60,480 nt of DNA from a virus (taxonomy: Duplodnaviria; Caudoviricetes): positions 1-60,480 of IMG/VR virus record IMGVR_UViG_3300025392_000294; one strand, given 5' to 3'. Shown piece after piece: positions 54,352 to 60,480 of this stretch. The notes beneath the pieces were generated by a model. That model was not told where the DNA came from and searched no databases. It was given only the letters and a program-made list of their open reading frames with translations. Within the stretch, counting starts at the first letter, position 1; each line of letters begins with the position of its first letter. Made by a program: the position numbers and the translations under genes.

Positions 54352-55124
54352 GATTTGAAGAATTTGCATTTGAACACGGCCTCGTGATCGACAATCTGTC
54401 TCTTGATAAGTGGATTCGAGTCAAGACTTTGGACAAACCCAACAAGTTGAATGGCGCCTATGTCTTTGATGGACAGGGCGGGGCGGTCATCAACTTTGCC
54501 ACTATGGAGAAACACGCTATCTTTAAATCCGATAAGCCTTATGTGATCGACCATGACAAGATCAAGCGCGTCAATCAGGAGCGGTTGGATCGTCAGGAAG
54601 AAGCGCGCCGGAAGGCGGTCTACATCGTCAAGTCAGGCGTCTTGTCCACCCATCCTTACTTGATTCGCAAGGGGTTTCCCGAGCGCGGTCTTGTTTGGAA
54701 AGAGTTGCTCGTGGTCACAATGCGAGCGGGGGGTCAACTTGTTGGATGCCAGCTAATCGATAAGATCGGCAACAAAAAGTTCCTGTCGGGGCAGATCACC
54801 AAGGGAGCAAGCCTCGTGATAGACAATAAAGGGCGGGACATACTGGTAGAGGGCTATGCGACTGGTTTATCGGTGCGTAGAGCGCTTAAACTCATGAAGG
54901 CTAGGTATAGGATACACGTCTGTTTCTCGGCCTCTAATATGCTTGAAATCGCGAGGGGTCTGAATCGGCCTCTTGTGGTTGCGGATAACGACCCTGTTGG
55001 CCTGAGCACTGCTCAAAAAATAGCCTCGTGCTATTGGGTGGGTGAGGCTGGGGAGGATTTTAATGATTTTGAGACTCGGGTGGGGGCTCGGGAGGCTGGT
55101 GAGTCTCTTGTGAAATTGTTGTAG
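54348..55124 (+). CDS. Toprim-domain primase
   Basis: LVEGYATG, VVADND, DFND. Confidence 0.85.
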   Translation: MRFEEFAFEHGLVIDNLSLDKWIRVKTLDKPNKLNGAYVFDGQGGAVINFATMEKHAIFKSDKPYVIDHDKIKRVNQERLDRQEEARRKAVYIVKSGVLSTHPYLIRKGFPERGLVWKELLVVTMRAGGQLVGCQLIDKIGNKKFLSGQITKGASLVIDNKGRDILVEGYATGLSVRRALKLMKARYRIHVCFSASNMLEIARGLNRPLVVADNDPVGLSTAQKIASCYWVGEAGEDFNDFETRVGAREAGESLVKLL

Positions 55125-55190
55125 GGTCAACAAGTTGGGGGCAGTCTGCGCAACCGATAGATTGGCAGACCCCCAGTTCCTCGCACCGAG

Positions 55191-55394
55191 TCAAACCTCT
55201 TCCTCGCGGATATTGCACCGCTCAATGTCAGTTGTTTGTAGGTCGGTGATATCGTCTACATTGAAGAGCTCATAATCTAGATTGACCGCGACCTCGTGGG
55301 CGTCATCCTCATCCAAGGCGGTCACATAGACGTGGCACAGGGTCGTGTAGGTGGCGCTCACCTTGTATCGTCGTTTAAGCATGGTCATATGCAT
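55191..55394 (-). CDS. Small early protein
   Basis: YKV.ATY....V.A.DED.A.E.A. Confidence 0.55.
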   Translation of the reverse strand: MHMTMLKRRYKVSATYTTLCHVYVTALDEDDAHEVAVNLDYELFNVDDITDLQTTDIERCNIREEEV

Positions 55395-55707
55395 CCCCCA
55401 GTTTGTAGGTTTTGTTCAAAATCCTAAAAAATTTCGTGTTGTCTCTAACAACCTTTCCATCTTCTTCGGTTAAAAAGTAGGCGGTGATAATGAAATCATC
55501 CCCATCAAACCAAAAATTAAGGTCGTACTGGACGCCGTCCACCTCCGTCCAGTCCCATGATTCCATGCCATCATACGAATCCGGATCGAGTTCTCGTGGC
55601 GCCAGTTTAGCCAAAATCTTTGCCCTGAGCATGGGGTCGACCTTTACATACTGGCATTCGCAAACTGTTGGGTGTACTTTCCCGCTCGTGCATTGTTCGC
55701 AAGTCAT
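55375..55707 (-). CDS. Small early protein
   Basis: GGAGG RBS before MTCEQC. Confidence 0.55.
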   Translation of the reverse strand: MTCEQCTSGKVHPTVCECQYVKVDPMLRAKILAKLAPRELDPDSYDGMESWDWTEVDGVQYDLNFWFDGDDFIITAYFLTEEDGKVVRDNTKFFRILNKTYKLGDAYDHA

Positions 55708-55847
55708 GTTGACACCTCCGTCATTTCGAAATTGTAGAGGCGCGCGTACTGCTCGAGGGCATCGTAGCACGCCTCATAAAGGACTTCGTTCGCGAATGTG
55801 GCCGACTCAAAGACGTGGCCATCGATCTCAAAAAATATGGTTATCAT
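55704..55847 (-). CDS. Small early protein
   Basis: Hand-translated MITIFFEIDG...; ATGA overlaps on both sides. Confidence 0.5.
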   Translation of the reverse strand: MITIFFEIDGHVFESATFANEVLYEACYDALEQYARLYNFEMTEVST

Positions 55848-55966
55848 TCTTCATTCTCCTGTTCTTCAACGTCAAATCTAAGCCACCGGCATCCCTCGAA
55901 AATCTCGACAACCTCGAAGTCAATGCCGGCTTTTTCTAAGGCCTCGTATAGTTCTTGTGCGGTCAT
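55844..55966 (-). CDS. Small early protein
   Basis: Hand-translated MTAQELYEALEKAGIDFEVVEIFEG...; ATGA overlaps. Confidence 0.5.
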   Translation of the reverse strand: MTAQELYEALEKAGIDFEVVEIFEGCRWLRFDVEEQENEE

Positions 55967-56247
55967 TCTTCATTCTCCTCTTCGCCATAAAGCATATCCA
56001 AAACTTCAATACCTTCGTCATCATGCGGTACTTCAGTTACAAAGTAGCCGATTCTGTTTACATAATGCCACCCATCGACTATAAAAGTGCCAATATTTCC
56101 ATCTACTAATGTCCAAATTTTCTTTGGGTCAGTTTTCTTGATGAATTCGTACTCTTGTCCATATGTTTCAAAAAGTTGAGTTTCTTCATTTTGACCAAAA
56201 GTGTTTACGATTGGTTTGTATTTTTCTTCCCATTCTTCGTAAGTCAT
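55963..56247 (-). CDS. Small early protein
   Basis: FETYG.E..F.......IWTLVDG...G.HYVNRIGYFVTE.P. Confidence 0.65.
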   Translation of the reverse strand: MTYEEWEEKYKPIVNTFGQNEETQLFETYGQEYEFIKKTDPKKIWTLVDGNIGTFIVDGWHYVNRIGYFVTEVPHDDEGIEVLDMLYGEEENEE

Positions 56248-56483
56248 TTTTCGCTCTCCTTGGGCAGAAAATCATAAATTTTTGCAAAATATTCAATGTC
56301 TTCAATGGGCGCGTAGTATAAAAACTTGCTCACCATCTCTTGGACGTCTATCTCATTGAGCAAAAACTCCACAAAATCGTCGAGTCGCTCGCAAGAAGTC
56401 AAAGGCGCGTCTTGGGGGACGGAAAACACTTGCCTGAGTTTTTTGTTGCTTGTTTCACCCCAGTCCCAGTCAGTCTCCATCAT
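56244..56483 (-). CDS. Small early protein
   Basis: Acidic; coupled starts and stops. Confidence 0.55.
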   Translation of the reverse strand: MMETDWDWGETSNKKLRQVFSVPQDAPLTSCERLDDFVEFLLNEIDVQEMVSKFLYYAPIEDIEYFAKIYDFLPKESEK

Positions 56484-56674
56484 TTTGGATTCTCCCTTGC
56501 GTACTCAATACCGGCCTCGAATGCAATATAGGTATCCATCAGATGTGTGTATCCTTCCAAAGAGCTAACCGAATCGTTGTCTTTTAGGAACCGCAAAATG
56601 GTTTCATCGTCGCACTCGGAAATGCGACTAGAGTACAAGTCATAAAATGCTTGTTCAGTTGGTGATAGTGTCAT
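56480..56674 (-). CDS. Small early protein
   Basis: GAGG RBS; coupled to neighbour. Confidence 0.55.
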   Translation of the reverse strand: MTLSPTEQAFYDLYSSRISECDDETILRFLKDNDSVSSLEGYTHLMDTYIAFEAGIEYARENPK

Positions 56675-56843
56675 GATTTTGGCCTCGTGTTGTTTGGTAA
56701 TCTTGCTCGATGATTTCGAGTTTTCTCTTAAACTCTGCTAAAAATTCAATTTTGTTCTTGTATCCCAGTGACTGGTACGATTGCCCATAGGACAGATCGC
56801 ACACGTCAAAGTAGAGCTCCTGAATGAGTGTGAGTGTGTTCAT
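56655..56843 (-). CDS. Small early protein
   Basis: ATGA overlap. Confidence 0.5.
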   Translation of the reverse strand: MNTLTLIQELYFDVCDLSYGQSYQSLGYKNKIEFLAEFKRKLEIIEQDYQTTRGQNHDTITN

Positions 56844-57058
56844 TTTCTCGCCCCCACCACGTCATCGATTGCAGAATTTATAGAATTCCAGTTAATGCCA
56901 ATTTCAGCATCGTGTGATTTAACGATGATCTCCAACACTTTGCGGGTTTCTTCTAGGGTGAGCTCCTCGCCAATCTGTTCGCACTGGTCTGTTATATCGT
57001 CCTCGCACCATTCATCACGGATAACCCATTGTTTCTCAGTCTTAATTAATCGTGCCAT
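56840..57058 (-). CDS. Small early protein
   Basis: AGGAGG RBS right after hammerhead 1; W..DDI...HDAEIGINW. Confidence 0.65.
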   Translation of the reverse strand: MARLIKTEKQWVIRDEWCEDDITDQCEQIGEELTLEETRKVLEIIVKSHDAEIGINWNSINSAIDDVVGARK

Positions 57059-57076
57059 TTTTGGCCTCCTGTAGTT

Positions 57077-57128
57077 GCACAAGACCCGCTCGCGCGGGTT
57101 TCGCCCAGTCAGGGCTCATCAGTTGCGC
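57077..57128 (-). ncRNA. Type I hammerhead ribozyme 1
   Basis: GCGCAA CUGAUGA GCCC-UGACU-GGGC GAAA CCCGC-GCGA-GCGGG UC/ UUGUGC; predicted cut 57083|57082. Confidence 0.92.
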
Positions 57129-57362
57129 TTAGACTATTTCCCATTTCAGATCAAAAACTGTCGGGTAGAGCTCTTGCGTGGTTTCGGGTTCGCCCACGGG
57201 CTTAACCCATACGCGACCGGTTGAGCCGTCATTGTGCGGGGGTCTCCCCCCAGTGAGCTCGAACTCTTCGCCGTTGCGGGTTTTGATGATCGCGCCCTTG
57301 GGGACTGCCACGCCATCCTTGTCCACCAGTAACCAGTTGTATTTTGTTGCTATAGTTGTCAT
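57129..57362 (-). CDS. Small early protein
   Basis: GGRPPH..GSTGRVWV...ELYPTVFDLKW; stop abuts the ribozyme. Confidence 0.65.
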   Translation of the reverse strand: MTTIATKYNWLLVDKDGVAVPKGAIIKTRNGEEFELTGGRPPHNDGSTGRVWVKPVGEPETTQELYPTVFDLKWEIV

Positions 57363-57541
57363 TCGTGTATCTCCAAAAATTGATCGTAATATTCGCGCTC
57401 GAGCGTGTTCAAGAGGTTAACCGGCTTGATGTAAGCTGGGTTTCCGGTCATGCCCATGTAGGTCATGGCCTCTTCTTGTGCCCTGTGCATTGTCTTAAAC
57501 TCGCCCAACAAGCGAGAATTGTGGTTAAAAACTAGATACAT
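57359..57541 (-). CDS. Small early protein
   Basis: GGAGG RBS; LGEFKT...A..EA..Y...TGNPAYI. Confidence 0.6.
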   Translation of the reverse strand: MYLVFNHNSRLLGEFKTMHRAQEEAMTYMGMTGNPAYIKPVNLLNTLEREYYDQFLEIHE

Positions 57542-57699
57542 GAGCGCGCCTCCAATCGACCGCGGTTAAAAAGAAACACGGCCTTGTTTTTGTGTTCCTG
57601 ATACTCGCGCGCAAGCATTCGTTGAAAGCGCGCCAGTTTAATGCGGTTTGTCTCAAAAAGATAACCGGCTTGTATGTAGTCAAACTCTGTATATTTCAT
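57532..57699 (-). CDS. Small early protein
   Basis: Hand-translated MKYTEFDYIQAGYLFE...; RBS after hammerhead 2. Confidence 0.6.
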   Translation of the reverse strand: MKYTEFDYIQAGYLFETNRIKLARFQRMLAREYQEHKNKAVFLFNRGRLEARSCI

Positions 57700-57715
57700 A
57701 ATTTCCCTTGTAGTT

Positions 57716-57767
57716 GCATGAGACCCCCTCTCGAGGGTTTCGGCCTCTCAGGCCTCATCAGTCATGC
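57716..57767 (-). ncRNA. Type I hammerhead ribozyme 2
   Basis: GCAUGA CUGAUGA GGCC-UGAGA-GGCC GAAA CCCUC-GAGA-GGGGG UC/ UCAUGC; predicted cut 57722|57721. Confidence 0.93.
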
Positions 57768-57915
57768 TTTTTTGAATGATCGCGTAAATTCGGGAAATCT
57801 CGGGCTCAGTCAAGTCAAGCTCGCGTGCAATTATTTGCTCGCTGGCAACGTGCTCAAGCGCGACACTTGCTATTTTCATGATGGCGATTAGTTCTTTTTT
57901 GGTTAAATTCTTCAT
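57748..57915 (-). CDS. Small early protein ending inside hammerhead 2
   Basis: Hand-translated MKNLTKKELIAIMK...KSMTDEA*. Confidence 0.55.
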   Translation of the reverse strand: MKNLTKKELIAIMKIASVALEHVASEQIIARELDLTEPEISRIYAIIQKSMTDEA

Positions 57916-57925
57916 GATTTCCCTT

Positions 57926-58573
57926 TTAGTGCATTAAGTAAGATACAGTTTTATTCGTCCAGCAAGCGCGACAGTCGCGACACTCGCCGGCTTGGCTGGG
58001 GGCTTTACAGGCGAGCCCTAGAGGCTTTTTAGTGTGGACGTTGGACGTTGTCACGCCTCGCACGCCTTCGAGGCTCTTGGGTACCTTCACGGCCTTGTCG
58101 GGATACATACCGGAGAGCCGGACAATCAAGTTTTTGGGGATTACTCCACCGGCTGAGATAAAGTCTTTGATGATCGAGTACTCGCGCGTTGGAAGCCAGT
58201 GTTTTGTTTTCGGCGTCAATTGTGCGATTTCTACGATCTTTTTAAAGTGTTCAAGCCCCTGAAGGTCGCCGGAATCGTGCCATCTAAAGTACTGATCCGA
58301 ACCGATTAGAGTCACCATCGCGTCCACCCAGTGAGGATCATTGATTGAGTCTAATCTAGCAAATTGGGCGGGTTTAATGGTGTTCTGATAAAGTTGGTAG
58401 AAGCCGGAATTAGCGTAGCAGTAAAAACAGATCGATCCCTCAATTTGAGCCATTTTGAAACCGGTCGCGCACGCCTCGGTCGGTAGACTGTAAGACTTGC
58501 ATGGCATCTTCGAGGTTTCGGTGAGCCCACCAGTGAGCGCGCTCGCCTCTTTTTTCAACATAATTACTCGCAT
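57926..58573 (-). CDS. Gp88-like Cys-rich protein (radical-SAM-related)
   Basis: SKMPC.SYSLP...C...CFYCYA, YFRWHDSGD, HWLPTRE, CRDCRACW. Confidence 0.7.
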   Translation of the reverse strand: MRVIMLKKEASALTGGLTETSKMPCKSYSLPTEACATGFKMAQIEGSICFYCYANSGFYQLYQNTIKPAQFARLDSINDPHWVDAMVTLIGSDQYFRWHDSGDLQGLEHFKKIVEIAQLTPKTKHWLPTREYSIIKDFISAGGVIPKNLIVRLSGMYPDKAVKVPKSLEGVRGVTTSNVHTKKPLGLACKAPSQAGECRDCRACWTNKTVSYLMH

Positions 58574-58576
58574 GGC

Positions 58577-58753
58577 TTAACCCTCAATTAGTTGGTACAT
58601 ATTCCACCCGCACGTTACAACGTGCGACCCGCCCTTGATTAATTCGTCGATCATGGAGCGGTCGAAATCGTGCCAGCCGTCCCAATCGATAGGGTGGCGA
58701 CATATCTCGCGCCAGCCGTGGCGCTCATGTTTTGCGTGGTAAGCGATAACCAT
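58577..58753 (-). CDS. Small early protein
   Basis: Hand-translated MVIAYHAKHERHGWREIC...; AAGGA RBS after hammerhead 3. Confidence 0.6.
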   Translation of the reverse strand: MVIAYHAKHERHGWREICRHPIDWDGWHDFDRSMIDELIKGGSHVVTCGWNMYQLIEG

Positions 58754-58774
58754 GGTTTTGTTTCCTTAGTAGTT

Positions 58775-58827
58775 GCATAAGACTGGCACAAGTGCCAGTT
58801 TCGCCCATTAGGGCTCGTCAGTTATGC
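58775..58827 (-). ncRNA. Type I hammerhead ribozyme 3
   Basis: GCAUAA CUGACGA GCCC-UAAU-GGGC GAAA CUGGCA-CUUG-UGCCAG UC/ UUAUGC; predicted cut 58781|58780. Confidence 0.93.
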
Positions 58828-59055
58828 TACTTGGGGCTCGTATTCCTCCACCAGTTCGACCAATGCTTTCATGGCTTCTACGATGGTATTGAAGTGGCAC
58901 TCTTCGTTGTTGAGGTCTTTGAGGTAATATCCGGTGATTGGGCCTGTTGAAATCCAAATGGAATAAATCAGCGATCCATATTCGTCCATGTCATCAACAA
59001 TTTGATAGGAGTTGTTGAGTTCGCATGATTCGAAGTTTACGATTACATTGTTCAT
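58822..59055 (-). CDS. Small early protein
   Basis: Start MNNVIV after the AAGGA RBS; UAA stop lies in stem I of hammerhead 3. Confidence 0.6.
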   Translation of the reverse strand: MNNVIVNFESCELNNSYQIVDDMDEYGSLIYSIWISTGPITGYYLKDLNNEECHFNTIVEAMKALVELVEEYEPQVA

Positions 59056-59075
59056 TTTTGTTTCCTTGGTTAGTT

Positions 59076-59127
59076 GCATAAGACGCCCTTTCGGGCGTTT
59101 CGTCCAATCAGGACTCATCAGTTATGC
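59076..59127 (-). ncRNA. Type I hammerhead ribozyme 4
   Basis: GCAUAA CUGAUGA GUCC-UGAUU-GGAC GAAA CGCCC-GAAA-GGGCG UC/ UUAUGC; predicted cut 59082|59081. Confidence 0.95.
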
Positions 59128-59332
59128 TTGGCAGTACTGGCAAGGGCAAACCCTCACATCTGAATTCTGCATGGGTGAAACCGCGGTTCTTGGCGTAAGT
59201 CAACGCATTGGCGCGCGCCTCGACCAAATCATTGGACATAAAGCCGGTAATGAGTCGACCGCGGTAGAAAAGATCAACACAGTATCCGCGCCCACCATAG
59301 GGCTGATATATTTTTAATTGAACGGTTTTCAT
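59108..59332 (-). CDS. Small early protein ending inside hammerhead 4
   Basis: ...PSITDES*; RBS after hammerhead 5. Confidence 0.6.
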   Translation of the reverse strand: MKTVQLKIYQPYGGRGYCVDLFYRGRLITGFMSNDLVEARANALTYAKNRGFTHAEFRCEGLPLPVLPSITDES

Positions 59333-59349
59333 TGGTTTCCTTAGTAGTT

Positions 59350-59401
59350 GTGTGAGACCGGCTCTCGCCGGTTTCGGTCAATCAGACCTCATCAGTCACA
59401 C
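59350..59401 (-). ncRNA. Type I hammerhead ribozyme 5
   Basis: GUGUGA CUGAUGA GGUC-UGAUU-GACC GAAA CCGGC-GAGA-GCCGG UC/ UCACAC; predicted cut 59356|59355. Confidence 0.95.
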
Positions 59402-59693
59402 TGGTGGGCATAAAGCGCTTGAATAGGTCTTGGAAGGCCTGAATCAACAACCAGCGGTTGTGAGAGTCGGCGCATTGGTAGGCGTCGCCAATAGCACCGG
59501 CAAACGATCCACCGGATTCGCGCATGACCCTCGAGGCGGTGTGAAATGGGTCGTTAATGTCGAACCAGTGTTGCAGTGAGTCGAAACAGCGATCGTTGAC
59601 GCTGACGCCGGTCAAGTCGCAAAGGAACATGGTTTGCTCACTGGTAGAGTGATATTCAATTAAGTTATCGATTGTTTTGAATTGTGAATACAT
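59382..59693 (-). CDS. First early-operon protein, ending inside hammerhead 5
   Basis: GGSFA.AIG.AY..AD..N...L..AF; ...TSVTDEV*. Confidence 0.65.
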   Translation of the reverse strand: MYSQFKTIDNLIEYHSTSEQTMFLCDLTGVSVNDRCFDSLQHWFDINDPFHTASRVMRESGGSFAGAIGDAYQCADSHNRWLLIQAFQDLFKRFMPTSVTDEV

Positions 59694-59783
59694 AGTGTTG
59701 TTTCCTTAGTTGTTGTTGAAAATATGAGGCTCTGTTTTTGATACCCCATACCTTATATGTGGAAAAAATCGTGCCAGCGCTTG

Positions 59784-59796
59784 TAAGTTGTTGATT
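59784..59796 (-). promoter_or_regulatory. IHF consensus site
   Basis: AATCAACAACTTA fits WATCAANNNNTTR; lies between the divergent early operon and terS. Confidence 0.55.
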
Positions 59797-59888
59797 TATA
59801 AGGGAGTCTATTTGATTTTGGGGGTGATTGTGGGTTCAGACGTTTCGGTTTATACTCATGCAATCCAACAAGTTGGGGGTCACACACC

Positions 59889-60480
59889 ATGCCGGAAACA
59901 AGTAAGCGCGCGCCAGTCAAAAGATTATCGAGGGCGCAAATCAAAGATACACTAGACAACACACCCATCGAGAGCATATTAGGTGTAAAACAACCGCTCA
60001 CCAGTAAACAGAGAGAGTACGCGCATAAGGTAGCACAAGGTGTCATGAGTAAGAGAGAGGCATACAAGACAACGTATAACGCCCAAAGCGAGCATACACT
60101 GAACAATGCGCCTTATATGCTGGCGAGGGACTCAAGAGTGTCAAAAGAAATAGAGGCGTACAGGCTGGCAATAGAGGCGGAGAAACTGCGAACCCCCGTT
60201 CAACTGAAGGCTTTGCTAATCCACCAGCTAGTCAAGCATTCCATCGATGAGGACTTCCCACCAGCCCAGCGAATGAAGGCGCTCGAGTTGATTGGCAAAC
60301 TCTACGAAGTGGGCGCCTTCGAAGAGCGCAAGACCACCACAGTGATTCATCAAAAGAGCGGAGACATCAAAGCCCAGCTACTCGAGCGCATCAAGGCGGT
60401 CGTTGATGTGAGCGCAAAGCCGGCGCGTACCGGAGGCGCGAGTCTACTGGCGGAGATTTCAGAGGCGCTCGACCCCACCC
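59889..60480 (+). CDS. terS: Probable terminase small subunit (runs off the window end; not in the ORF track)
   Basis: Hand-translated MPETSKR...LTSKQREYAHKVAQG.MSKREAYK..Y...RMKALELIGK; would precede terL if circular. Confidence 0.65.
   Translation, partial: MPETSKRAPVKRLSRAQIKDTLDNTPIESILGVKQPLTSKQREYAHKVAQGVMSKREAYKTTYNAQSEHTLNNAPYMLARDSRVSKEIEAYRLAIEAEKLRTPVQLKALLIHQLVKHSIDEDFPPAQRMKALELIGKLYEVGAFEERKTTTVIHQKSGDIKAQLLERIKAVVDVSAKPARTGGASLLAEISEALDPT

Follow-up and report, generated by a model that had tools for sequence, protein, structure and literature searches.

Open reading frames ending at or within type I hammerheads in a compact phage operon

Hammerheads and reading frames at the locus

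The window (the whole stretch of DNA analysed, 60,480 nt) belongs to a 60-kb uncultured freshwater phage and carries a leftward operon made up of small genes. In a structural scan that covered both strands of the window, exactly five type I hammerheads emerged, all on the minus strand and spanning 57077-59401. These elements, the open reading frames (ORFs) that end at them and one example of their 3' flank are listed in the order of transcription.

59382..59693, minus strand: ORF of 103 aa, first of the operon, ending VTDEV*; stop UGA at 59382-59384, in loop II of hammerhead 5
59350..59401, minus strand: hammerhead 5, predicted cut 59356/59355, loop II UGAUU (scan; R1 model, 91.1 bits; fold, z -3.3)
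59108..59332, minus strand: ORF of 74 aa ending ITDES*; stop UGA at 59108-59110, in loop II of hammerhead 4
59076..59127, minus strand: hammerhead 4, predicted cut 59082/59081, loop II UGAUU, stem I ending UAA (scan, model and fold)
58822..59055, minus strand: ORF whose stop UAA at 58822-58824 takes up the final three bases of the 5' strand of stem I in hammerhead 3 (position -3)
58775..58827, minus strand: hammerhead 3, predicted cut 58781/58780, loop II UAAU, core CUGACGA (scan; fold; model, 61.6 bits)
57748..57915, minus strand: ORF of 55 aa ending MTDEA*; stop UGA at 57748-57750, in loop II of hammerhead 2
57716..57767, minus strand: hammerhead 2, predicted cut 57722/57721, loop II UGAGA, stem I 5' strand ending UGA (scan; fold; model, 92 bits)
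57129..57362, minus strand: ORF of 77 aa whose stop UAA at 57129-57131 adjoins stem I of hammerhead 1 (position -9)
57077..57128, minus strand: hammerhead 1, predicted cut 57083/57082, loop II UGACU (scan; fold; R1 model, 89.6 bits)
57058..57076, minus strand: 3' flank of hammerhead 1, AACUAC followed by a Shine-Dalgarno sequence and the start codon of the next gene (alignments)

The original prediction had placed three ORF ends of the form (M/I/V)TDE(A/S/V)* at a UGA in loop II (57748, 59108 and 59382), one at the stem I UAA (58822) and one right before stem I (57129), with loop II opening with UGA or UAA in all five copies; coordinates, sequences and the ORF list bear out each of these placements. 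The three loop II stops all occupy loop positions 1-3, which is +11 counted from core C3, and finding three of five ORFs in one frame is within chance (binomial P for at least 3/5 at 1/3 each = 51/243 = 0.21). In every window copy, each of the three frames meets a stop triplet between -9 and +13. Nine tblastn matches cover 99-103 residues of the 103-aa ORF at 62-82% identity, seven being full-length, and the junctions of this ORF's protein family stop at +11 in six cases and at -14 in two. The stop of the 77-aa ORF has the invariant A(-7) as its third base, and orthologues stop at -9 (three junctions) or -8 (one junction). The probable start of ORF 58822..59055 is the ATG at 59055, preceded by AAGGAAAC, and no homologue of this ORF was found among the fetched loci.

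All five copies share a 6-bp stem I, the core CUGA(U/C)GA...GAAA, a stem II of 4-5 bp, a stem III of 6-8 bp and a GUC cleavage site, with stem I open and hairpins II and III closed in both the scan and the minimum-energy folds. The minimum-energy structure of each copy is the hammerhead (z -2.4 to -4.9). The core residues C3 U4 G5 A6 N7 G8 A9 and G12 A13 A14, the A15.1-U16.1 pair and a non-G H17 are present in 5/5 window copies, and 99 of 102 related copies have the same core, the remaining three carrying C at position 4. Across 66 distinct related sequences, 99.9% of the alignment cells are paired and 13 of the 16 pairs have changed on both sides, in an alignment that was fitted to the model and so favours pairing; none of 500 shuffles scored as high and slid controls reached at most 46% paired.

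At gathering thresholds, Rfam returned no match to the window hammerheads. The best scores for Hammerhead_1 (RF00163) were 30.0 bits (hammerhead 4, E 0.00037) and 27.2 bits (hammerhead 3), below the gathering score of 34. These two copies align over positions 1-45 of 45 and share the topology and core of that family, whereas the window elements have a longer stem III and a different loop II consensus. The other three copies match the HH9 or RAGATH-1 models only, and weakly: HH9 (RF02275) scored 23.3 bits for hammerhead 1 and 20.9 bits for hammerhead 5 over model positions 10-63 and 13-63 of 77, against a gathering score of 52, and RAGATH-1 (RF03152), with its upstream hairpin and A-rich linker, scored 21.1-23.3 bits (E 2.9-8.9) against 56.3 bits. 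We regard the elements as ordinary hammerhead cassettes at gene boundaries, with ORF overlap, and from their core and fold all five are predicted to self-cleave.

The surrounding operon offers few other landmarks. Among ten operon proteins, GP88 (PF17338, 57926-58573) is the sole identification in Pfam and PHROGs, together with two PHROGs of unknown function; Pfam found nothing on 59889-60479, and megablast of 40000-60480 against GenBank phages gave no match. A promoter and terminator scan of 55000-60480 returned four promoter-like sites, none usable, where 6.7 were expected. A sequencing-run search placed the sequence in 24 freshwater metagenome DNA runs and in no RNA run.

Stop positions and operon compaction

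We compared stop positions, counted from core C3, in two sets of junctions. The family set holds 66 unique related junctions, drawn from viral contigs by a search pattern in which parts of the core and of the 3' flank are fixed; the broader sample has 122 other viral type I hammerhead junctions among the matches listed. Upstream ORFs were called by a simple longest-ORF rule. In the family, every upstream stop lies between -14 and +12: at -14 (3 junctions), -13 (2), -12 (1), -9 (15), -8 (7), -3 (12), +1 (8), +11 (13) and +12 (5). Stops at -9 and -8 use the invariant A before stem I, those at -3 lie in stem I, those at +1 are the catalytic UGA and those at +11 and +12 are in loop II. In the broader sample, 62 of the 122 stops overlap the ribozyme, with 17 straddling the edge of stem I, 10 in stem I, 27 coinciding with the core UGA and 8 in stem-loop II. 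Thus, the catalytic UGA serves as a stop codon in about one fifth of these sampled viral junctions. A full-text literature search, covering main texts as distinct from supplements, found no paper describing stop codons inside hammerheads.

The prediction that the stop always precedes the cut holds throughout the family, where none of the 66 ORFs crosses the cleavage site; in the broader sample, two of 122 do cross it. Stops within -20 to +14, which is within the reach of a terminating ribosome, occur in 66/66 family and 109/122 broader junctions, far more commonly than at random positions in the same loci treated with the same ORF procedure (266/2004, 13%). Stops more than 14 nt upstream are found in 0/66 family junctions and 11/122 of the broader sample, a near-lack that could also reflect selection for overlap.

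However, the ten ribozyme-free junctions of the window are spaced at -20 to +10 nt, with 4-nt overlaps predominating in the ORF list, and therefore the closeness of stops to ribozymes matches the general compaction of the operon. The position of the stop also varies within protein families: the 66 junctions represent 28 upstream families, which mix +11 with -14, +12 with -3 and +1, -3 with +1, +12 with +11, and -3 with +11. On the far side of the ribozyme, the AACUA(C), Shine-Dalgarno and start codon arrangement recurs behind every one of the five window copies; in 54/66 junctions the next gene starts 20-35 nt past the cut, so that both flanking translation events touch stem I.

Recombination joints and stop triplets in the scaffold

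Two of the three loop II endings in the window can be seen to come from recombination that replaced the native stop. The 74-aa ORF (59108..59332) is chimeric: over residues 1-55 it shares 91-94% identity with 61-aa proteins at three related loci, which end in VENLNP or VENINR followed by TAA with no ribozyme behind, and its last 19 residues are unrelated to those proteins, with a blastn breakpoint near 59167. The second case is the 55-aa ORF (57748..57915), whose homologues at five related loci align only to residue 48; the four whose ends were read have C-termini of their own and TAA stops, with no ribozyme after them. This ORF lies on an inserted segment and has no stop of its own, its final six residues being encoded by the ribozyme scaffold.

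57769..57927, minus strand: 159-nt segment with a ribosome-binding site and the 55-aa ORF, present in the window and absent from three relatives (alignment)

The same break is found by blastn against seven related loci, those three among them, and in relatives that lack the segment the GP88-like gene ends at a stop codon that includes the first base of stem I.

Such joints raise the possibility that the 5' half of the ribozyme is selected to supply stops in three frames, with the ribozyme, ribosome-binding site and gene forming an exchangeable module, in which translation of any gene newly recombined upstream would stop ahead of the cut. All three frames are closed between -9 and +22 in 5/5 window copies and in 40 of 63 unique family copies, and where frame 0 stays open before the core, closure comes mostly at +12 or +15. 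In addition, the two window ORFs that lack native ends are terminated by the ribozyme, and blastn mosaic breakpoints at 59323, 58756 and 57768 coincide with cassette edges. Yet 23 of the 63 copies leave some frame open, the obligatory core UGA closes frame 1 whatever the selection, a U-N-A loop and a Y-R-A stem end give stops about half the time from the structure of the code, and three further breakpoints (59167, 58574 and 56859) lie away from ribozymes.

The composition of loop II bears on the same question. Its consensus is U-N-A-N-U, with U at position 1 in 34/34 distinct loops, A at position 3 in 32/34 and mostly U at position 5. Position 2 varies (G in 16, U in 9, A in 7 and C in 2), so that U-N-A is the prevailing pattern and roughly two loops in three carry a purine at its centre; this purine excess (23/34) is mild but real. 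The 23 stops observed at loop positions 1-3 match what column shuffles give (22.1), whereas all nine distinct loops with U at position 2, and thus no stop at 1-3, have a stop at positions 2-4 (5.2 in shuffles, fraction reaching this 0.003), and 32/34 loops carry a stop in either of the two registers (27.3 expected, fraction 0.001), both in tests that ignore phylogeny and hence shared ancestry. These enrichments hint at selection for stops in loop II, but we consider a selected stop-supplying module unlikely.

The loop might instead be kept solely for a tertiary contact needed in catalysis, its reading as a stop being coincidental. In natural hammerheads, loop II docks on stem I at the place that is occupied here by the invariant A(-7) and the 3' AACU flank. 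Loop-loop contacts are stated to be general for natural hammerheads (PMC13725137). Such a contact, which would allow activity at cellular Mg2+, may be reflected in conservation: the U-N-A-N-U loop, with its near-invariant positions 1 and 3, is accompanied by an invariant A(-7) and a 3' AACU flank after a fixed 6-bp stem I, and similar U-N-A-A-U loops occur in other phage hammerheads with a 6-bp stem I. Watson-Crick pairing of loop II with the AACUA flank as a pseudoknot was set aside, as by eye the two lack consistent complementarity, and covariation is uninformative with both sides nearly invariant. Against a purely structural role, position 2, which decides between stop and sense, varies freely. 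Since UUA, UUG or UCA stands at loop positions 1-3 in 19/66 junctions, URA itself is not required. Moreover, 13 of the 66 junctions use the loop triplet as their stop, where selection on the triplet must act. We therefore regard tertiary contact as a very improbable sole explanation for the loop II triplet.

Termination, cleavage and known systems

We conclude that ORF ends at or in these ribozymes most likely arise from tight packing and gene shuffling, rather than from a dedicated control switch. The full explanation that we favour, with modest confidence, is one of hammerhead cassettes in a packed operon, with opportunistic stops and a scaffold that catches ORFs after cassette exchange. Each cassette consists of the invariant A(-7), stem I with its 6 bp, the catalytic core, stem II of 4 bp with its U-N-A-N-U loop, stem III and the cleavage site, the stem I 3' strand, AACUA, a Shine-Dalgarno sequence and a start 20-35 nt after the cut. 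As the operon is packed, upstream ORFs reach or enter the ribozyme in its 5' half, terminating at whichever stop triplet comes first in their frame. The scaffold supplies these in all three frames, as N-R-A or U-A-G through the invariant A(-7) and G(-6), as Y-R-A at the end of stem I, as U4-G5-A6 in the core and as U-R-A in loop II. Since stop triplets are thus on offer in every frame, the loop II stops can be read as opportunistic, and the same scaffold terminates ORFs whose native ends vanished during cassette exchange beside ribozymes. Self-cleavage would then split the polycistronic RNA. The upstream piece would keep its stop codon, and its 3' end would be formed by the hairpins of stems II and III and a cyclic phosphate; the downstream piece would have a 5'-OH and start shortly before its own ribosome-binding site.

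A ribosome on these stops covers the 5' strand of stem I and, at +1, +11 and +12, also the core and stem II, as judged from footprint sizes. The ribozyme could presumably fold only with no ribosome on the stop, so that termination and cleavage would be mutually exclusive in time; we saw no evidence that this exclusion has been selected as a switch. The original prediction went further, proposing that termination inside the ribozyme couples cleavage to upstream translation. One part of it stands, in that a terminating ribosome must melt the ribozyme and stops precede the cut. Several findings argue against the other part, a selected coupling through loop II: there are at least six stop sites, the catalytic UGA among them, stops shift within families, two of the three window endings are recombinant, and loop II follows U-N-A rather than strictly URA. 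Moreover, of the 53 junctions that do not use the +11 triplet, 34 have a stop there and 19 do not.

In its general form, such gating would mean that termination inside the ribozyme is selected and that upstream translation sets the timing or extent of the cut, tuning the stability or translation of the neighbouring cistron. It would account for stops lying within reach of a terminating ribosome, for the lack of family stops past the cut and for the close spacing of the next start. However, compaction alone predicts equal closeness, protein families do not conserve the position of the stop, and the part of the ribozyme occluded from stops at -14 to -8 would differ considerably from that occluded at +11 or +12. 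There is likewise no conserved alternative pairing between upstream ORF and ribozyme: in a consensus fold of six hammerhead 5 orthologues, the hammerhead stems are retained and no pairing to the ORF is conserved. In 150-nt context, the full hammerhead appears in the minimum-energy fold of one of five copies, and those folds represent only 0.7-5.8% of the ensemble. On these weak context folds and the orthologue consensus, we rejected a variant in which the upstream coding sequence sequesters the ribozyme and translation frees it. Taken together, we hold gating to be decidedly unlikely, and it seems just as improbable that phage type I hammerheads are widely gated by ribosomes, often via the catalytic UGA, a form of translation-coupled RNA processing that we did not find described. 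Were gating true, translation of the upstream neighbour would determine when and how fast each cistron is released. If the overlap is a by-product only, it shows the extent of phage compaction, with a structured RNA doubling as a catch-all translation terminator at recombination joints.

In T7-like phages, RNase III sites between early genes provide intercistronic cuts that yield separate units with defined, structured ends. Here, by contrast, the RNA itself would cut, not a host enzyme, leaving 2',3'-cyclic phosphate and 5'-OH ends. A close likeness is to the arrays of Perreault et al. 2011 (PMC3088659), whose main text describes tandem hammerheads between genes of prophage-like polycistronic transcripts that cleaved during in vitro transcription, the A. 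tumefaciens array also in E. coli, and leaves their purpose open. Both systems place several hammerheads between the genes of one phage-type transcript, cutting it up. Compared with that description, the window copies score below Rfam gathering thresholds, have a fixed 6-bp stem I, an invariant A(-7) and an AACUA-Shine-Dalgarno flank, and are overlapped by upstream ORF ends; the terms 'stop codon' and 'overlap' each occur zero times in that main text, counted apart from its supplementary figures.

Two further systems link ribozymes to coding regions. A review describes a discontinuous hammerhead in a mammalian 3' UTR that cuts between the stop codon and the polyadenylation signal (PMC6765202). 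Like the window copies, it lies just after a coding region, so that cleavage comes after the stop and bears on what becomes of the mRNA, but as described there it belongs to a eukaryotic 3' UTR, a long insertion divides it, and no ORF overlaps it. Self-cleaving ribozymes before ORFs of RNA viruses have been proposed to aid translation initiation (PMC13725137). As presented in that study, they resemble our elements in being type I hammerheads directly upstream of an ORF with a link to translation, and differ in that they belong to eukaryotic RNA viruses and act at initiation; matches in DNA bacteriophages were set aside there.

The same review notes that additional work is needed to define the role of bacterial and phage hammerheads (PMC6765202). 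The systematic adjoining or overlap of ORF ends and ribozymes provides a concrete, testable link between translation and self-cleavage. Annotators should also be aware that the 3' end of a gene may conceal a hammerhead, and that the ribozyme dictates short C-terminal tails such as TDEx, QLMRx or a final N.

Hammerheads at the ends of upstream genes

A structural scan of both strands located exactly five type I hammerheads in the window, which is a complete contig of 60,480 bp, all on the minus strand and confined to the first 2.7 kb of a leftward block of small genes that runs from 59693 to about 55375; the large ORFs of the contig (459-55124) lie nearly all on the plus strand. Every copy consists of a 6-bp stem I, the core CUGA(U/C)GA, a 4-5-bp stem II, GAAA and a 6-8-bp stem III, with GUC as the cleavage-site triplet in all five, and in 5/5 copies the hammerhead is the minimum-energy structure (z -2.4 to -4.9). 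These ribozymes gave no match in Rfam at gathering thresholds; in E-value mode, the best scores were 30.0 and 27.2 bits for Hammerhead_1 (gathering score 34) and 23.3 and 20.9 bits for HH9 (gathering score 52). The five elements belong to the already known type I hammerhead ribozymes, and their RNAs are predicted to cleave themselves.

Window hammerheads (structural scan) and upstream ORF ends, with stop positions counted from core nucleotide C3
57077-57128, minus strand: hammerhead 1
57129..57362, minus strand: ORF whose UAA stop abuts stem I, -9
57716-57767, minus strand: hammerhead 2
57748..57915, minus strand: ORF ending MTDEA*, stop UGA at loop II positions 1-3, +11
58775-58827, minus strand: hammerhead 3
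58822 (end), minus strand: ORF with a UAA stop formed by the final three bases of the stem I 5' strand, -3
59076-59127, minus strand: hammerhead 4
59108..59332, minus strand: ORF ending ITDES*, stop UGA at loop II positions 1-3, +11
59350-59401, minus strand: hammerhead 5
59382..59693, minus strand: ORF ending VTDEV*, stop UGA at loop II positions 1-3, +11

The original prediction held that three ORFs end in (M/I/V)TDE(A/S/V)* at a loop II UGA, that one stops at the stem I UAA (58822) and one directly before stem I (57129), all of which the ORF list bears out, and that loop II opens with UGA or UAA in every copy, as it does (UGACU, UGAGA, UAAU, UGAUU and UGAUU). Between -9 and +13, each of the five copies offers a stop triplet in every frame: at -3 or -9 in frame 0, the core UGA (+1) in frame 1, and at +11 in frame 2.

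Four window copies served to build a covariance model, which identified 102 copies, five of them in the window and the others in 44 related loci obtained by a pattern scan of viral contigs. Pairing holds for 99.9% of cells across 66 distinct sequences, in an alignment whose fitting to the model favours pairing; the slid controls (at most 46% paired) and the count of pair types nonetheless give a clear result. Compensatory changes affect 13/16 pairs, and 0/500 shuffles reached the observed pairing. Judged from these comparisons, the hammerhead fold of the family is secure.

Stop positions are labile within the ribozyme scaffold

Each unique junction of this 6-bp stem I family (60 nt upstream plus the ribozyme; n=66) was assigned the longest upstream ORF starting more than 60 nt upstream, stops being accepted between -90 and 200 nt past the predicted cut.

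Upstream stops in the family (junctions; upstream protein families)
-14: 3/66; 2
-13: 2/66; 1
-12: 1/66; 1
-9: 15/66; 7
-8: 7/66; 4
-3: 12/66; 9
+1: 8/66; 5
+11: 13/66; 7
+12: 5/66; 2

Random positions of the same loci, treated identically, have a stop within -20 to +14 in 266/2004 cases (13%), as against 66/66 in the family, and a separate scanner pass (63 unique junctions) gave the same picture. No upstream ORF runs past the cut at any of the 66 family junctions, and the claim that the stop always precedes the cut thus holds for 66/66, with 2/122 exceptions among the matches listed in the broader sample described below. The -9 and -8 stops draw on the invariant A(-7), and -8 also on G(-6); the stop at -3 coincides with the end of stem I, and that at +1 with U4-G5-A6 of the catalytic core. 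Since stops are spread over -9/-8, -3, +1 and +11/+12, loop II is one among several stop sites in the scaffold.

The upstream proteins belong to 28 families, inside which the stop position shifts (+11/-14, +12/-3/+1, -3/+1, +12/+11 and -3/+11); in the family of the VTDEV* ORF, the loop II stop is kept in six junctions. The short tails TDEx, QLMRx and final N are set by the ribozyme and are no conserved protein part. The operon is equally tight at window junctions without a ribozyme (n=10), where gaps range from -20 to +10 nt and are mostly 4-nt overlaps.

A looser pattern returned at least 120 stretches and 118 new loci, 101 of which contain, according to the scanner, at least 145 unique type I hammerhead-like sites; among the matches listed, 122 sites with an upstream ORF of at least 45 aa form the broader sample, the other 23 being dropped.

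Upstream stops in the broader sample, among the matches listed
More than 14 nt before stem I: 11/122
Within 14 nt before stem I, no overlap: 47/122
Straddling the 5' edge of stem I: 17/122
Inside the stem I 5' strand: 10/122
Core UGA: 27/122
Stem-loop II: 8/122
Beyond the cut: 2/122

Among these listed matches, 62/122 stops overlap the ribozyme, and of the internal stops the catalytic UGA is the most frequent. Stops in loop II are a speciality of the class with a 6-bp stem I and a U-N-A-N-U loop.

Polycistronic RNAs of phage type are known to contain hammerhead arrays, with activity seen both in vitro and in E. coli (Perreault et al. 2011, PMC3088659), and a later review, in its passage on such arrays, still terms their purpose undefined (PMC6765202). 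The main text of the 2011 paper, whose gene maps sit in supplements, nowhere uses 'stop codon' or 'overlap'. A full-text literature search, with supplementary gene maps outside its reach, found no description of stops inside hammerheads, and systematic ORF overlap of ribozymes was not found described in the literature searched.

Loop II and the terminating ribosome

We lean towards compaction and cassette exchange as the most likely cause of the overlap. Selected catching of stops by the ribozyme scaffold is a live alternative, though a rather improbable one, on which the composition of loop II bears. A set of 34 distinct 5-nt loops has U at position 1 in 34/34, A at position 3 in 32/34 and U at position 5 in 27/34, with position 2 variable (G16, U9, A7, C2); URA is therefore read as U-N-A with a purine in the middle, in 23/34 loops, in line with column shuffles (expectation 22.1; a fraction of 0.27 of the shuffles reach the observed number). 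At junctions where the +11 stop triplet is not used as the stop, it is present in 34/53 and absent in 19/53 (UUA 12, UUG 4, UCA 3). The U-turn motif is UNR, and a structural reading would fit, in which a U-turn plus purine stack often reads as stop because 3/4 triplets of the form URR are stops. In tests that ignore shared ancestry, loops with U at position 2 carry a stop at positions 2-4 in 9/9 cases (5.2 expected, 0.003), and 32/34 loops carry one in either register (27.3 expected, 0.001), a hint that more may be involved.

Ribosome gating of the ribozyme is likewise live, and we regard it as unlikely. Counting from the A-site codon, a ribosome shields roughly 12 nt of downstream mRNA; terminating at -9 or any later stop, it would cover the entire stem I 5' strand, and at +1, +11 or +12 also the core and stem II, so that folding and termination would be mutually exclusive in time. 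The proposal that a terminating ribosome unfolds the core is thus sound physics, for all stop sites and not loop II alone; of the proposed coupling of cleavage to translation, this exclusion in time stands, but nothing in this analysis shows selection as a control device.

Masking of the ribozyme by upstream coding sequence was considered and rejected. Folded singly within 150 nt of sequence, 4/5 copies no longer form the complete hammerhead, and the 5' halves of hammerheads 4 and 5 are predicted to pair with upstream coding sequence in the minimum-energy folds of 59048-59197 (z -2.8) and 59322-59471 (z -2.2), both on the minus strand; these structures are weakly populated, and no conserved ORF-ribozyme pairing relievable by translation was found, the consensus of six hammerhead 5 orthologues keeping only the hammerhead.

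Recombination joints and cassette anatomy

Sequence comparison traces two of the three loop II endings in the window to recombination. The first involves a 159-nt segment (57769-57927, minus strand) carrying a ribosome-binding site and a 55-aa ORF, a clean insertion that separates the stop codon of the GP88-like gene from stem I of hammerhead 2. It is missing from relatives (L032:7270-7390, L004:6020-6140, L031:4314-4434), where the GP88-like stop overlaps the first base of stem I. Alignment of the 55-aa ORF with homologues in five loci (L029, L003, L016, L022, L037) ends at residue 48; in the first four loci, whose ends were read, the proteins finish in C-termini of their own at TAA stops that no ribozyme follows. 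The insertion's left joint (...AUGCACUA / AAAGGGAAAUCAUG) is similar to the 3' end of the hammerhead cassette (...AUGCAACUACAAGGGAAAUUAUG), which suggests recombination through this short cassette-like similarity.

The second is the 74-aa ORF (59108-59332, minus strand), a chimera. Its residues 1-55 are 91-94% identical to 61-aa proteins of L004, L015 and L007, which end ...VENLNP/VENINR plus TAA with the next gene directly after and no ribozyme, while its last 19 residues are unrelated to them and run into hammerhead 4; a blastn breakpoint lies near 59167, and the last 19 residues and hammerhead 4 come from elsewhere. By blastn, 59800-55500 is a mosaic relative to seven loci (L004, L012, L015, L031, L032, L040, L043), with breakpoints at cassette edges (59323, 58756, 57768) and away from them (59167, 58574, 56859). 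The repeated 50-70-nt ribozyme cassettes may act as recombination linkers.

GP88 (PF17338; E 1.2e-21; 57926-58573, minus strand) is the sole Pfam match among the operon proteins scanned; of nine other small proteins, one (56840-57058) matches a PHROG of unknown function and eight match nothing.

Throughout the alignment, the base preceding stem I is A and stem I is always 6 bp, and AACU is the 3' flank in nearly all rows, followed by a Shine-Dalgarno and, in 54/66 junctions, a start codon 20-35 nt past the cut. In the remaining 12/66, an AUG within the stem I 3' strand, 3 nt past the cut, open and in frame with the downstream gene (e.g., window 59076-59081), misleads a simple start rule; these AUGs are probably chance, about one third being expected. 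All five window cassettes have the invariant A before stem I and AACUA(C/A) after it, then a Shine-Dalgarno (e.g., 57058-57076 and 59332-59349, minus strand). After the cut, the upstream product would retain its stop 29-49 nt before the new 3' end, with hairpins at the end, and the downstream product would begin shortly before its own ribosome-binding site, opening with a fixed ~12-nt leader whose candidate roles are a tertiary contact, translation or both.

In three related copies (L015:6368-6435, L031:4581-4648, L029:4218-4285), core position 4 is C rather than U (CCGAUGA); their stems are all intact. As this change strongly impairs hammerheads, these copies may be inactive or altered; C at this position also abolishes the +1 stop triplet.
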